From: a virus
Virus record (IMG/VR): IMGVR_UViG_3300025849_000025
Coordinates: 1 to 64,000 of that record
Direction: 5' to 3' (one strand)
Length of the DNA stretch: 64,000 nucleotides
Shown: piece by piece, positions 37,115 to 61,037 of the stretch
Numbering within the stretch: the stretch's first letter is position 1
Layout: the number at the start of each line of letters is the position of its first letter
Notes under the pieces: model-generated
The model's database searches: none
What the model saw: only the letters and a program-made list of their open reading frames with translations
Told to the model about the DNA's origin: nothing
Position numbers and translations under genes: made by a program

Positions 37115-37408
37115 TTACCGTACTTGAATATCGATTTGATTAACAAGGTCTTCAACAAAAATGTCTGATACCTTCTTATCGGTGATTACTTTGTATTCTC
37201 CTTTTACTTTCCGCACCCGAACGAATGCGATGTCATATAGATCAGAACCGTTCAATGTGATTTGCACTTGTCCTTTCCATCCAACCATACCACTAGTTTT
37301 AAACTGAAGACCTTCACTCAAGGCAACTTTGTTCTTAGTACCCCAAGCCCAAAAGGCCATTGGGTCAAGACATTTGATTTGGTCATTGATGATATTTGCG
37401 ATTGACAT
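37115..37408 (-). CDS. Hypothetical early protein
   Basis: ORF downstream of a sigma70 promoter cassette. Confidence 0.75.
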   Translation of the reverse strand: MSIANIINDQIKCLDPMAFWAWGTKNKVALSEGLQFKTSGMVGWKGQVQITLNGSDLYDIAFVRVRKVKGEYKVITDKKVSDIFVEDLVNQIDIQVR

Positions 37409-37441
37409 GTTTAGAACTCTCTCTGATTCTGTTTACTTCTT

Positions 37442-37478
37442 AAATTAACAAATTGAGAAGGGGGTGTCAACCCCCTAT
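37442..37478 (-). promoter_or_regulatory. sigma70 promoter with -35 in a hairpin loop (AGGGGG-TTGACA-CCCCCT)
   Basis: TTGACA-N17-TAATTT. Confidence 0.65.
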
Positions 37479-37480
37479 TT

Positions 37481-37732
37481 TTATGCCGCTTCCAACATTG
37501 AGAAAGGAACAGTGTAACGTGAGCCACGCATAGACACGACAGCTTTCTTAGGGTTCATCTTTTCGATGACGCCTTGAGTACGTTTTGTTTTCTGAACAAC
37601 CCAAACTGAGTCACCAACATTAAAAGTGGCTTGAGCGCTAATCGCTTTGATCTGTTGTGCGATGTTCATGATTTGTGACAACTCTGTTTGTGTCATTGTC
37701 ATCATTGCGTTCTTGATATCTGTTACGTTCAT
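37481..37732 (-). CDS. Hypothetical early protein (SH3/KOW-like C-terminus)
   Basis: Probable start MNVTDIK; FNVGDSVWV motif. Confidence 0.7.
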   Translation of the reverse strand: MNVTDIKNAMMTMTQTELSQIMNIAQQIKAISAQATFNVGDSVWVVQKTKRTQGVIEKMNPKKAVVSMRGSRYTVPFSMLEAA

Positions 37733-37767
37733 TTTGTTTTCTTTCTGATTAATTAACTTACTCATAT

Positions 37768-37796
37768 GTTATAGAATCAAAAAAGGGTGCTGTCAA
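37768..37796 (-). promoter_or_regulatory. Early promoter TTGACA-N17-TATAAC with GATTC abutting -10
   Basis: One of five copies sharing the TTGATTCTATAA core. Confidence 0.8.
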
Positions 37797-37831
37797 GCAC
37801 TAAAGTAACTTTATTCTAACTTAATTAAGAT

Positions 37832-37912
37832 TGGTGTCAGTTAAGGAATTGAACCTTAATCATCCATGATATGACGCCTAGATATCCATTGGATTAGTAA
37901 ACCTACCTGACA
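37832..37912 (-). ncRNA. tRNA-like RNA ending in CCA (non-canonical)
   Basis: TGTCAG...CTGACA-CCA acceptor-like stem; T arm TAAGG-TTCAATT-CCTTA; central GATAT/ATATC stem with 9-nt loop; own sigma70 promoter upstream. Confidence 0.6.
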
Positions 37913-37955
37913 TAAGTTCTTAAATAGAATCATTTATTATCATAAGGGATACCCT

Positions 37956-37984
37956 ATTATACCACAGATAGTGATACTTGTCAA
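37956..37984 (-). promoter_or_regulatory. Consensus sigma70 promoter TTGACA-N17-TATAAT with extended -10
   Basis: TTGACAAGTATCACTATCTGTGGTATAAT, pointing into the tRNA-like element. Confidence 0.8.
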
Positions 37985-37991
37985 GTCTTTT

Positions 37992-38402
37992 TTACTTATA
38001 ATTGATAAATTTATCTGGGCTTCTGAAATTCTTTTTGCGCATAATTGTTTTCATAACAACGTCGAATTCGTCATTACGTCTGTCATATGTAACTGCAACT
38101 GGAATGTTCAAATCTTTTTGGATGTCTTTAAGAACAGCCTCAGCACCCGCAACATCTTTAATAGACTTGCCTTTCTGTGCATAAACCTTCTTGATGAAAT
38201 CAGCCAATTCTTTAAGGCTAATACAAGGAGTATTACGTTCATCGCCCATACGATCAGCAAAGTGTCGTGTGAAGTTGAAGTCAATATCGTACTTCTTAAA
38301 GAGTTGATCAACAATCTTTTCAAACTGCTTGATCTGTTTCATGCCAATCAAGTCACATGATTTAGCTTCAGCCTCAGCCAAGTGTTGTTTAAAATTTTTC
38401 AT
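37992..38402 (-). CDS. Putative internal head protein, possible BECR/RelE-like RNase
   Basis: N-terminal MKNFKQHLAE capsid-targeting-like motif; FTRHFADR and VVMKTIMRK motifs. Confidence 0.6.
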   Translation of the reverse strand: MKNFKQHLAEAEAKSCDLIGMKQIKQFEKIVDQLFKKYDIDFNFTRHFADRMGDERNTPCISLKELADFIKKVYAQKGKSIKDVAGAEAVLKDIQKDLNIPVAVTYDRRNDEFDVVMKTIMRKKNFRSPDKFINYK

Positions 38403-38986
38403 TCTTCAAACTCCTTAAGTTTCACACGGATAGCTTTTATCATCTTCCTGTGAGTTCCAGTCAGTGTACGGTTCTTTTCCAATTCATCCATAATCTGAGT
38501 GGTTTGTTTTTTATAATTCGATGCCCATTTTTTAGTCTTTGCTGTGTTCAGATCACTTACGTTGTGAAGACGATCTGCCAACTTAACAACCAAAGCCCAA
38601 CTGCTCATGCTAGACATTTTAGCACTTAGGTAATCTGCTTTACTTGCTTTGAATTCTTTGCTTTGTTCATCAGAAGTCAGTTCTTTAACCATAGAGGCTA
38701 CCAAGCCACCAAACATCTTTGTGATGTCTTCTTGCTCAGTGTCGGTGTCTTCTACTGTATCGTGAAGGTATGCGGCACTGATCAAAGCTTCTATGTTATG
38801 AGACTTCTTAAACTGCTTTACAATTTTAGCAACTTCTACAGGGTGGGTAATGTAAGACTTGCCATCAGTACGAGTCTGCTTCCTATGAGCATTAGCCGCA
38901 AACCTAATGGCTTTCTGTGATTGCGTCAAGCTTGCACCCTTAGCCTCTGCTAATTGCTCCGTGACGTAATCTTTGAACCTTTTCAT
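38399..38986 (-). CDS. HD-domain (p)ppGpp hydrolase-like protein (SpoT/Mesh1-type small alarmone hydrolase), putative internal head protein
   Basis: AHRKQTR..G.SYITHP, AAYLHDTVEDT and VKLADRLHN motifs; N-terminal MKRFKDYVTE. Confidence 0.88.
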   Translation of the reverse strand: MKRFKDYVTEQLAEAKGASLTQSQKAIRFAANAHRKQTRTDGKSYITHPVEVAKIVKQFKKSHNIEALISAAYLHDTVEDTDTEQEDITKMFGGLVASMVKELTSDEQSKEFKASKADYLSAKMSSMSSWALVVKLADRLHNVSDLNTAKTKKWASNYKKQTTQIMDELEKNRTLTGTHRKMIKAIRVKLKEFEE

Positions 38987-38989
38987 TTC

Positions 38990-39322
38990 TTATTCCTTGT
39001 AAAGATAGAAGCATTTATCAGCACGTTGAAAGCTGTACCCCTTAATTTGTTTTCCTGCACGTTCATACAGATTAGCACGTTTTTCATCAGTCACATCAAA
39101 CATATACCACTTTGCACGATCAGCCTTAACAAGTTCTACAAAAGCTTTTGTCAGCTTACGATACAGTCCAACAGGGTTAGGTGTATCCCCTTCAATGGTA
39201 TACACCTTGATATGTTCAATGTCACCCATCCATTCGTCTATGTCATTTTTATACATGACGATCTTGTTATCTACTGCTTCAACGCAGTATACAAAACCCT
39301 CATGATCTACTTCTATTTCCAT
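38990..39322 (-). CDS. Hypothetical protein
   Basis: 110-aa ORF with RANLYER motif and its own sigma70 promoter (TTGACA 39371-39376). Confidence 0.7.
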   Translation of the reverse strand: MEIEVDHEGFVYCVEAVDNKIVMYKNDIDEWMGDIEHIKVYTIEGDTPNPVGLYRKLTKAFVELVKADRAKWYMFDVTDEKRANLYERAGKQIKGYSFQRADKCFYLYKE

Positions 39323-39384
39323 AACAAATTCTTTCTCTTACTGTAGAAAGATACTCAATGCAACCTTGGGTGTCAAGGTCTTTT

Positions 39385-40245
39385 TTACTTACCCTTCAAC
39401 TTTCTTCGTGTCTGACGATCCATTTGCGACAATCCAGAAGTCTTTATATACTTTGATTTCTGCTTATCAACATTGATTCCTGCACCACCACCTCTGGCGT
39501 TGCCTTTGTCAAATGCTCTCTTGCCGTGACGCAATAGTTTTTGAGTTTCTTTAGAACCTTTGATTTCGTCTGATGCTGATCTGAAGTCATCATACTGACC
39601 ACCCGCAATTTTCTTTGCAGAATAAAGCTTCTTAGTCATCAATTGAATTTCTGTGTTCACACCATCAACGTCAACTGAAAAGTGTACAGAACCGTAATAG
39701 CCAAACTGTTTGTCGCCACCACGTTCTTTTGGGTCAAACTCTGATACTGATTTAAATGCTTTGAAAATGTTTTTTGAAACAACACCGATATCTTTTTCGT
39801 CGTTTACTAGGATTGAACCACGCAACCAATCATTCATCTTTGATGGGTCTTTACCACGGTCAACAGTCTTGTTTACGAATGCCCTAAGCTTCTTAACATC
39901 AACCATAATCTTCGCGTTCTGAACACCCTTGAGCGCAGTCTTCAAACCAGATTCGTATTTCTTGAGGCGGTCTTTAATGATAGGCTCATACTTTTGGTAG
40001 AGCGCAACGACTTTTTCTTTGTCGTTCTTACCAGTAAAATCTTTGATTTTTTCATCAGCCCAAAATGTCTTTTTGGCGGGCTTCAATTTTTTGCTAAGTC
40101 TTTTAATTAAGGAGTCGTCTAGGTTTTCAATCAAACCATTTTCTGCAAGAAGCTCTAAACAGATGCTTTCTAGGATTGCATCAATGTTTTCAATGTCGCC
40201 CCATTCGGCTGAATTCTCGTTAATAAAGCTTTTAAAGTTTAGCAT
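39385..40245 (-). CDS. RelA/SpoT synthetase-like nucleotidyltransferase (small alarmone synthetase-like), putative internal head protein
   Basis: Likely start MLNFKSFINE (GAGG SD). Motifs VKKLRAFVNK, NDWLRGSILV, GYYGSVHF and TEIQLMT occur in SYNTH order. Confidence 0.72.
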   Translation of the reverse strand: MLNFKSFINENSAEWGDIENIDAILESICLELLAENGLIENLDDSLIKRLSKKLKPAKKTFWADEKIKDFTGKNDKEKVVALYQKYEPIIKDRLKKYESGLKTALKGVQNAKIMVDVKKLRAFVNKTVDRGKDPSKMNDWLRGSILVNDEKDIGVVSKNIFKAFKSVSEFDPKERGGDKQFGYYGSVHFSVDVDGVNTEIQLMTKKLYSAKKIAGGQYDDFRSASDEIKGSKETQKLLRHGKRAFDKGNARGGGAGINVDKQKSKYIKTSGLSQMDRQTRRKLKGK

Positions 40246-40277
40246 ATCGTCCTCATGTGTTCTACTTAGTATAGTGT

Positions 40278-40285
40278 TATTTATA
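40278..40285 (-). promoter_or_regulatory. T4-type late promoter TATAAATA
   Basis: Exact consensus about 33 nt upstream of the RelA-like gene, inside an otherwise early-type region. Confidence 0.8.
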
Positions 40286-40312
40286 CAAATAGAACACGTC
40301 GAGGGAGAACTT

Positions 40313-40747
40313 TTAAGCCGCCATGGCTTCTTGTTGAGTGCAAACGTAAGGCTTATTCCACTTGCCAACATTGATATCTACATAAAAATCAACATGGTGA
40401 TAATCTGACATTAGATCAGACTCGTCAAACCATTCGTCACCCTTCATGGCTTCTACAAGCTCATTGAAGAAATTCTTTGCCTCATCATCCCAATGAGAGT
40501 CGATGTGATATGTGTTGACTTGAATATACTTATTGGTGTTTTCGTAGTAAGGCATGCCACGACGATCAGCAATCTCTTTGTTTTTTGCGTTCTGCATACC
40601 AACGAAATCGAAATGCGAAGCAGAGATGTTAACAACAAGTGACATATGGTGTTTGATACCAATAGTACCTTTAACGCCATACTTTTTAAGAACTGCTTTG
40701 ATATTAGGAGCTAGTTGCTTTTTACGTTCTTGTGAAATATAAGCCAT
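40313..40747 (-). CDS. Hypothetical early protein
   Basis: ORF after a promoter cassette. Confidence 0.8.
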   Translation of the reverse strand: MAYISQERKKQLAPNIKAVLKKYGVKGTIGIKHHMSLVVNISASHFDFVGMQNAKNKEIADRRGMPYYENTNKYIQVNTYHIDSHWDDEAKNFFNELVEAMKGDEWFDESDLMSDYHHVDFYVDINVGKWNKPYVCTQQEAMAA

Positions 40748-45474: not shown

Positions 45475-45565
45475 TAGTGTTAATCTCCTTACATAATTTA
45501 AATGTACCTATATTATATCATAATGACTATAATCTGTCAAGTAAATATGGTATTAGCACATATTA

Positions 45566-58380: not shown

Positions 58381-58409
58381 ATTATACCACAGATATCTTA
58401 ATTTGTCAA
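58381..58409 (-). promoter_or_regulatory. sigma70 promoter for gp55 (TTGACA-N17-TATAAT, extended -10)
   Basis: TTGACAAATTAAGATATCTGTGGTATAAT. Confidence 0.8.
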
Positions 58410-58510
58410 CTATGCATTTTTTACTTGACAAGCTTTTCAAGTCGTGTATAATAGGCGTATGCCTTATAAGAACAATAATGATTCTTTAATGCTATTAAGG
58501 ATAATTAAGA

Positions 58511-60494: not shown

Positions 60495-60548
60495 AACATA
60501 ATCCTCTCTATATTAATGAAAGGATTATACCACAAATATTAGAGAGTG

Positions 60549-61037
60549 TCAACCAACTTTTTCGAAGGTATATCTGTCATATCGGAAAGACATGTTAACT
60601 TCTGGGTAGAATACGTCAGTTCCAGTTATGTCAAGATTTACAGCACTTAGAGATACTGGTGTACAGTTTAGGAAGTTGAACTTCACGTTTAGATTCTTGT
60701 TGCTGTTCAAGATCAGAATGCTGATATCACTGTCAAGACCTTCGACCCCATCTTTCAATGGTTTGTAATCATCAAACTTTTCTGGGCTTGCAAGAGCTTT
60801 CATCCAATTGTAACATTCCATATAGTTGTTCATGTTTTCGTCTACAAGGAAACTGAAGTCTAAATCTTGGTACGCCAATCTGTCGCCAGCAACAAACAAG
60901 TTTCCCATAGGGTTCACTAGCTGTGGAGCTTCTAATGTGACACCTGGGATAAACGCTTTCTGTGTGAAGAACTCTACGTTAGGTAAACGTGATACAGACA
61001 CGGTAAAACCAATAGGTGATAAGTAATTAGTGTTCAT
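60549..61037 (-). CDS. gp3: Tail tube terminator gp3-like
   Basis: NYLSPIGF...LPNVEFF, F.VDENM.NY; late promoter at 61081-61088. Confidence 0.85.
   Translation of the reverse strand: MNTNYLSPIGFTVSVSRLPNVEFFTQKAFIPGVTLEAPQLVNPMGNLFVAGDRLAYQDLDFSFLVDENMNNYMECYNWMKALASPEKFDDYKPLKDGVEGLDSDISILILNSNKNLNVKFNFLNCTPVSLSAVNLDITGTDVFYPEVNMSFRYDRYTFEKVG

Follow-up and report, generated by a model that had tools for sequence, protein, structure and literature searches.

A conserved, apparently undescribed family of small tRNA-shaped RNAs in uncultured marine phages

Background

That phage tRNA clusters encode additional stable RNAs has been known since T4, and the function of these RNAs is still open after 50 years. 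The T4 species 1 and 2 RNAs (genes rnaC and rnaD) are small stable RNAs located in the tRNA cluster, directly after tRNA-Arg(UCU), and their roles are still not known (PMC3014915, PMC9697503). Non-decoding RNAs that retain the tRNA elbow and T loop are further exemplified by YrlA and by the tRNA domain of tmRNA. The ends of YrlA lie in the Ro-binding stem and not in an acceptor stem.

The window considered here (the whole stretch of DNA that was analysed, 64,000 nucleotides) belongs to a fragmentary, 80-kb viral record that covers about 37% of the genome of a marine T4-like phage, whose baseplate hub is ~41% identical to the cyanomyovirus counterpart. A preliminary description of this DNA had proposed a separately promoted, CCA-ending, tRNA-like RNA next to a cluster of alarmone genes. 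This study provides a comparative analysis of that RNA, of its relatives in other phages and of its genomic surroundings.

Results

The RNA gene of the window

The minus-strand sequence quoted in the preliminary description was found at 37912..37832. It comprises a tRNA-shaped RNA gene of 80 nt, running on the minus strand from G1 to the A of the CCA (37832..37911), which gave a full-length match of 65.7 bits (E = 1e-16) with R1, a covariance model of the family presented below. All its parts lie on the same strand. The acceptor stem GUCAG/CUGAC counts 5 bp, or 6 bp (UGUCAG/CUGACA) if U37912, the -1 nucleotide of the RNA, pairs with A73 (37835). Its 3' strand CUGAC occupies 37840..37836 and the encoded CCA 37834..37832. 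Although a clear discriminator had been denied to this RNA, A37835 fills that place if the 5' end is G37911, and so matches the ...A-CCA ending of the family.

A mini hairpin, GUA-GGUU-UAC (37897..37906), stands in place of the D arm. Its family form is GCA-GGUU-UGC and it was present in 26/26 seed sequences of the model; the middle pair is C-G in the family and U-A in the window, with a U.G intermediate in L005, the closest RNA-bearing relative. There follows a long arm in two parts, with a basal helix AUCC/GGAU (37894..37891 with 37865..37862) and an apical helix GAUAU/AUAUC (37886..37882 with 37872..37868), both of which covary in the family and are separated by an internal loop (within 37862..37894). 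The arm is capped by the 9-nt apical loop CUAGGCGUC (37881..37873). The octamer AGGCGUCA of this loop (37872..37879) was encountered in every member found and is presumed to be the working end of the RNA. The T arm UAAGG-UUCAAUU-CCUUA (37858..37842) has a covarying stem, with changes from G-C to A-U at two pairs. The T arm, the acceptor pairing, the encoded CCA and the 9-nt loop were all present as originally described.

The single-sequence fold energy of the window RNA was unremarkable (z = -1.0), so that the case rests on comparison with relatives. The window copy kept all three fixed motifs of the family, namely AGGUUU in the mini hairpin, AGGCGUCA in the apical loop and GGUUCAAUUCC in the T arm. 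It also lacked one acceptor nucleotide and scored near the bottom of the family, and could for these reasons be deviant or weakening. Compensatory changes relative to L005 were observed in both the mini hairpin and the basal helix and therefore indicate continued selection for the fold. Of the words sampled from region 37400-38500, a fraction of 0.99-1.00 recurred in 14 metagenome runs belonging to 10 studies, so that the window copy represents a stable natural form. In one study, two runs gave RNA-library contigs that cover the element; such contigs do not show transcription, strand or ends, and one of them stops at 37799 and continues as adapter sequence. Two RNA-library runs of another study yielded contigs over the flanking genes only (four metatranscriptome runs in all).

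Promoter, leader and neighbouring DNA

On the minus strand, the interval is flanked by two small genes (37992-38402 and 37481-37765). A promoter aimed at the RNA, which had been called near-perfect, is in fact a perfect sigma-70 promoter, with a 12/12 consensus match (37956..37984, minus strand). It combines a -35 box TTGACA (37984..37979), a 17-nt spacer and a TG-extended -10 box TATAAT (37961..37956), and was conserved in the relatives L005, L006, L007, L064 and L075. As had been stated, no ORF of at least 40 aa occurs on the minus strand between promoter and RNA. Perfect sigma-70 consensus promoters numbered 5 in the window against 0.19 expected, so the phage clearly uses that promoter type; the others lie at 45512-45540, 58381-58409 and 60524-60552 on the minus strand and at 58425-58452 on the plus strand. 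Three of the five perfect promoters had the motif TGTGGTATAAT in common and, judging from this shared motif, likely form a class of early promoters of the window phage.

Alignment with relatives delimited a leader of ~40 nt between promoter and RNA (37912..37955, minus strand). It opens with a palindrome, AGGGTATCCCT (37945-37955, minus strand), directly 3' of the -10 box. Relatives displayed AGGGTTAACCCT in its place, and one of them AGCGTTATCGCT, in which both arms are altered. The palindrome might act as an operator or form a hairpin at the 5' end.

The same promoter and RNA were found in the close kin L005, L006, L007, L075 and L077, where a small, very hydrophobic protein of ~85-91 aa is encoded in the interval between them. 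In L005, the corresponding ORF (L005:3471-3746, plus strand) closes 1 nt ahead of the RNA, with a stop codon that abuts the first base of the latter. The window is devoid of this small ORF owing to a deletion of ~266 nt, whose site lies between about 37930 and 37915, and retains both promoter and RNA. Since the RNA was kept while the small ORF upstream of it was deleted, selection on the RNA probably operated in the window lineage.

Past the RNA, a promoter-like element TTGACA-N17-TATAAC (37768..37800, minus strand), both hexamers of which are invariant in relatives, would serve the downstream gene. As it lies just before the annotated ATG (37765), the start of that gene is probably the second ATG, ~34 nt further on. 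Only in the window does the same DNA also fold into a hairpin resembling a terminator (37800..37787), with a T run behind it. This hairpin was first taken as a terminator, a reading rejected because relatives have the TTGACA-N17-TATAAC promoter there and no T run.

Extent of the family

Loci of relatives were first fetched through the proteins flanking the RNA. Covariance model R1 was built from 26 seed sequences, the window sequence among them, with a hand-drawn structure. Among the loci listed from IMG/VR and from marine metagenome contigs, it gave 97 matches (72 distinct) scoring 62-105 bits, whereas true tRNAs in the same loci scored only 24-28 bits, or less. A pattern combining the apical loop and the T loop retrieved 31 IMG/VR contigs; further contigs were found with a pattern of mini hairpin and T loop in which the apical loop was left free. 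At least 120 marine metagenome contigs displayed a pattern match.

The family was not encountered in several other collections. The three-motif pattern had no match in 185,579 prokaryote genomes, and BLAST searches of 50,697 GenBank phage records with the window region and with two members gave none either. An exact 28-nt pattern likewise found no match in IMG/VR. At the syntenic sites of the cultured roseophages P12053L, SIO1, DSS3P8 and DSS3_MAL1, R1 gave tRNA-level scores only (at most 23.5 bits). We found no published description of this family, which may sit among the 10,006 viral structured-RNA motifs of a 2023 catalogue (PMC10690425). It is a conserved RNA family of uncultured marine phages, apparently not described before.

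A fold maintained by compensatory changes

Four parts are common to the members: an acceptor stem followed by ACCA, the GCA-GGUU-UGC mini hairpin, the long two-part arm and a T arm GG-UUCAAUU-CC. The constant stretches are GCAGGUUUGC, AGGCGUCA, GGUUCAAUUCC and A-CCA. Two of the collection scans required these motifs, so that their constancy is in part a product of the search, and the scans in which one motif was free serve as the only cross-check; AGGCGUCA was also present in the members collected by the pattern without loop constraint. The -1 nucleotide was U in 48/72 distinct members, and NCCA was encoded in 63 and ACCA in 54 of the 72.

Covariation was assessed on two alignments. With plain MAFFT, 90.6% of cells were paired against ~40% in slid controls, and double changes occurred at 15/23 pairs. 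The model-fitted alignment, which leans towards the fitted structure, gave 96.1% of paired cells against 33-55% when slid, and double changes at 21/23 pairs. None of 500 shuffles reached the observed covariation on either alignment. The basal helix reads AUCC/GGAU in the window, CCUU/AAGG in L005 and CAACAAC/GUUGUUG in others, and the apical helix occurs as GAUAU, GCUAC, GACAU or GUUAU. Minimum-free-energy folding of L301 (z = -4.1) and of L131 gave the same four-way junction unaided. By these alignments, a four-way junction maintained by compensatory mutations is shown, and the structural conservation that the preliminary description had looked for in related phages was indeed observed. On the same comparative grounds, the window element is a real gene for an 80-nt RNA and not a chance fold.

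Two members, L077:232-336 and L092:2889-2995, displayed an extra hairpin of ~20 nt at the base of the long arm. The long arm seems therefore to tolerate insertions while the apical loop stays fixed.

Relationship to tRNAs and Rfam families

At default settings, ARAGORN made no call in the window, nor in any family member. Lowering its threshold to 80% forced a 'tRNA-Pyl(cta)' at this site, and the 80-kb record as a whole then gave another 56 calls that were likewise weak and sub-threshold. Model RF00005 recognised only four true tRNAs in the record (66.6-68.3 kb), all of which encode CCA. The statement that this is not a canonical tRNA is supported by these results, as neither default ARAGORN nor RF00005 gave a call on the RNA. 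Rfam 15 at curated (gathering) thresholds had no match in the window or in two strong members; at E<=10 there was no tRNA match in the window, and a tmRNA match was confined to 11 nt of the T loop (6.7 bits). The tmRNA search of ARAGORN was negative for the window. Position 3:70 was C-G in 68/76 alignment rows and not G3.U70, the alanine identity pair of tmRNA.

The RNA possesses the acceptor stem (5-6 bp in the window), the T arm and the 3' NCCA of a tRNA. The D arm of the canonical cloverleaf is absent, with a 3-bp GGUU hairpin instead, and the place of the anticodon arm is taken by the two-part arm. Its apical loop measures 9-11 nt across members and consists of a variable prefix and the constant AGGCGUCA; no U33/R37 anticodon-loop frame was common to the members.

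Genomic context and carriers

Roughly two thirds of the distinct loci had the RNA inside a tRNA array, and in about a third it stood alone. The distance to flanking true tRNAs was 1-7 nt in about half to two thirds of the distinct loci, the RNA typically coming after tRNA-Arg(UCU), Ala(UGC) or Met and before Gly(GCC). In L008, whose upstream 136-aa protein is 85% identical to that of the window, the same site is occupied by five tRNA genes and then by this RNA. Some 20 stand-alone loci displayed the order ribonucleotide reductase, glutaredoxin, RNA, 148-aa gene and PhoH, the latter being 74-85% identical to SIO1-like roseophage PhoH. Loci that are rich in tRNAs and bear the RNA resemble large Ruegeria and Roseobacter phages. 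The carriers are T4-like myoviruses, SIO1-like podoviruses and tRNA-rich large phages.

Clustering of the 1,449 ORFs around the members revealed no universal partner gene and only lineage-specific synteny (RNR, glutaredoxin, PhoH, DUF3310, MazG and endonuclease I). The RNA occurred nowhere in two near-complete T4-like relatives of the window phage (91% and 100% complete). Since these relatives and the cultured phages are without it, the RNA is an accessory gene that occurs patchily in phage types unrelated to one another.

In a T4-like relative, tRNA-Arg(UCU) is closely preceded by a different tRNA-shaped RNA of 108 nt (L373:1501-1608, plus strand). Along with an acceptor stem and a T arm, this RNA displays a mini hairpin, CCA-AGGU-UGG, and a long arm that is branched; it received no ARAGORN call. 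From this layout, it may represent a sister family on the same chassis.

Discussion

Proposed role

We take the element, with a probability of about 0.6, to be functional and to encode a small, stable, non-decoding tRNA-shaped RNA that matures like a tRNA and shows its fixed loop to a partner. Host tRNA-maturation enzymes would excise it, RNase P acting at the 5' end with the aid of U-1 and of the acceptor/T minihelix, and the 3' end would be trimmed and then undergo CCA repair. Such maturation would confer tRNA-like stability and an L-shaped top half, in which the GG of the mini hairpin possibly contacts the T loop to build a tRNA-like elbow. The long arm would present the fixed AGGCGUCA loop to a trans-acting partner, for which a host or phage protein handling tRNA would be our first choice and a conserved host RNA the second. 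An RNA offering its loop in this way would therefore be a mimic or a sponge and not an adaptor of translation. No protein co-occurring with the RNA across lineages was found among the neighbourhood ORFs, and sites complementary to the octamer (UGACGCCU or shorter) were not enriched in the window and 71 member loci. The loop core GGCGUC is nearly self-complementary, and kissing-loop dimers are conceivable.

Alternative explanations

As the preliminary description had also suggested in general terms, the RNA might instead be a decoy or sponge for a host defence that targets tRNAs (an anticodon nuclease, a CCA-modifying toxin or a tRNA-sensing trigger), diverting or blocking the enzyme. It is established that phage tRNAs can evade tRNA-cutting defences, and this RNA retains the top half and CCA of a tRNA without a functional anticodon arm, accompanies phage tRNA arrays and has the patchy, accessory distribution among phage lineages expected of counter-defence cargo. 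However, the fixed loop is unlike any known anticodon loop and nothing points to a particular nuclease; a one-to-one decoy of a catalytic enzyme would need tight binding, and no defence or anti-defence gene lay consistently near the RNA-bearing loci. We regard a decoy as unlikely, though as a reading that deserves to be kept in view.

Improbable to a further degree is a role as processing signal only, modelled on mascRNA or on mitochondrial tRNA punctuation. The RNA would then be an RNase P site that sets the 3' end of the upstream mRNA or separates the members of an array, and once released it would be idle. The small-ORF stop codon that abuts G1 in relatives agrees with this, as RNase P cleavage there would form the mRNA 3' end. 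An acceptor/T minihelix would suffice for the purpose, however, which leaves the fixed mini hairpin, the octamer and the covarying long arm unexplained, and the window kept RNA and promoter with no upstream ORF left.

The octamer AGGCGUCA is exactly complementary to UGACGCCU, positions 1827-1834 of E. coli 23S rRNA (L372:4086-4093). This stretch is one that we take to be conserved and to lie in helix 67, beside intersubunit bridges B2b and B2c; part of it is presumably paired within the helix. A new class of phage riboregulators could be imagined, in which the tRNA-shaped chassis would enter host tRNA pathways and dock on the large subunit like a tRNA, and AGGCGUCA would pair with the rRNA and tune subunit joining or ribosome assembly. 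The match is post-hoc and its chance in one rRNA operon is roughly 0.07-0.18; we give this reading very little credence.

The same DNA had originally been brought together with alarmone metabolism, and the RNA could in principle cooperate with the RelA/SpoT-like synthetase and the HD hydrolase encoded next to it, acting in alarmone or tRNA-CCA pyrophosphorylation as substrate, mimic or regulator. The two genes are located 0.4-2.5 kb upstream of the RNA, on the same strand. The HD_4 match is solid (E = 5e-20) and the RelA_SpoT match weak (E = 1e-3, 19.8 bits against a Pfam cut-off of 27 bits). The same layout was observed in L008 and L315. Among the 97 RNA loci, however, a RelA-like gene was near the RNA in only 3, an HD gene in 2 and the 136-aa gene in 7, all of them close kin of the window. 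L005 has the RNA without an HD gene, and its RelA-like gene is a 43-aa remnant. Conversely, relatives with the 136-aa gene are mostly without the RNA: ~68 loci with this gene upstream displayed no such RNA within the 3-kb downstream flank. The RNA moreover has its own promoter, and a separate small ORF intervenes in relatives. Given the few loci, the gene loss in L005 and the RNA-less relatives, the neighbourhood of RelA/HD and RNA is best read as lineage-specific synteny and not as a functional unit. Of the original proposal, the separately promoted, CCA-ending, non-canonical tRNA-like RNA stood, and its functional tie to RelA/HD, for which linkage in relatives had been named as decisive, did not; we hold such a partnership to be highly improbable. 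The RelA-like and HD pair behaves as a variable cassette (L005:1199-3001 as compared with window 38399-40371), and most loci with the 136-aa gene have neither of the two.

Hardly any more credible is an unusual decoding tRNA, be it a suppressor reading through the CUA of the window loop or a frameshift or quadruplet reader with an expanded loop, as the forced 'tRNA-Pyl(cta)' might suggest. CUA is not conserved, the loop prefixes being CU, CCU, ACU, CUU, CUA, CA, CAC and UUC, and the constant octamer in a 9-11-nt loop is without a shared U33-NNN-R37 frame. The arm exceeds the length of D stem plus anticodon stem in most members, and the ~20-nt hairpin of L077 and L092 comes on top of it.

A tRNA pseudogene decaying from a former array, to which the tRNA array at the same site in L008 and the shortened acceptor stem and lowest-range score of the window copy might point, is contradicted for the family and very improbable for this copy. 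All 72 distinct sequences display the one non-tRNA architecture, in which each helix shows compensatory changes and three motifs are fixed, and pseudogenes do not covary.

Comparison with known systems

Compared to a canonical tRNA (RF00005), the present RNA has in common the acceptor stem, the discriminator with CCA, the 5-bp T stem, the UUCAAUU loop and the position in tRNA arrays. It differs by having neither a 4-bp D stem nor a variable loop, and by its two-part arm, which counts 10-12 bp and ends in a loop of 9-11 nt. The mascRNA and the tymovirus TLS resemble it in possessing a module of tRNA shape, which RNase P probably releases from a longer transcript and which either bears CCA or acquires it. 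These are, however, eukaryotic or RNA-virus elements without sequence relation, and the best member scored 13 bits with them in Rfam, where the thresholds are 40 and 42.5 bits. Unlike tmRNA, the RNA has no tag reading frame and no G3.U70, and neither YrlA nor any other Rfam family matched the window or two members.

Like T4 rnaC and rnaD, the present family often follows tRNA-Arg(UCU), and the 3' part of rnaC likewise comprises an acceptor-like stem and a T arm. The T4 RNAs are longer (139 and 119 nt) and have no GGUU mini hairpin of the same form. R1 gave 18 bits with rnaC, in the same range as with ordinary T4 tRNAs, and neither the GCGUCA of an rnaC loop nor the rnaC T loop is kept among rnaC homologues. 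Homology to the T4 RNAs was thus not supported, given this tRNA-level score and the shared loop letters that are not conserved. They are nevertheless the nearest known things and are treated here as analogues rather than as relatives.

The family, which is frequent in marine metagenomes and has 72 distinct covarying members from no fewer than three unrelated phage types, offers a clean and widespread example of such RNAs. Because tRNA finders and Rfam 15 miss them, its genes are left as blank intergenic DNA. A tempting link between the RNA and alarmone/toxSAS biology has been removed as unsupported. Since the tRNA-like parts and the one fixed loop are separable, the role of non-decoding tRNA look-alikes in phages becomes directly testable. 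As far as comparison of sequences can tell, this family belongs with the stable tRNA-like RNAs of phage tRNA clusters, among which it has unusually clear comparative support.
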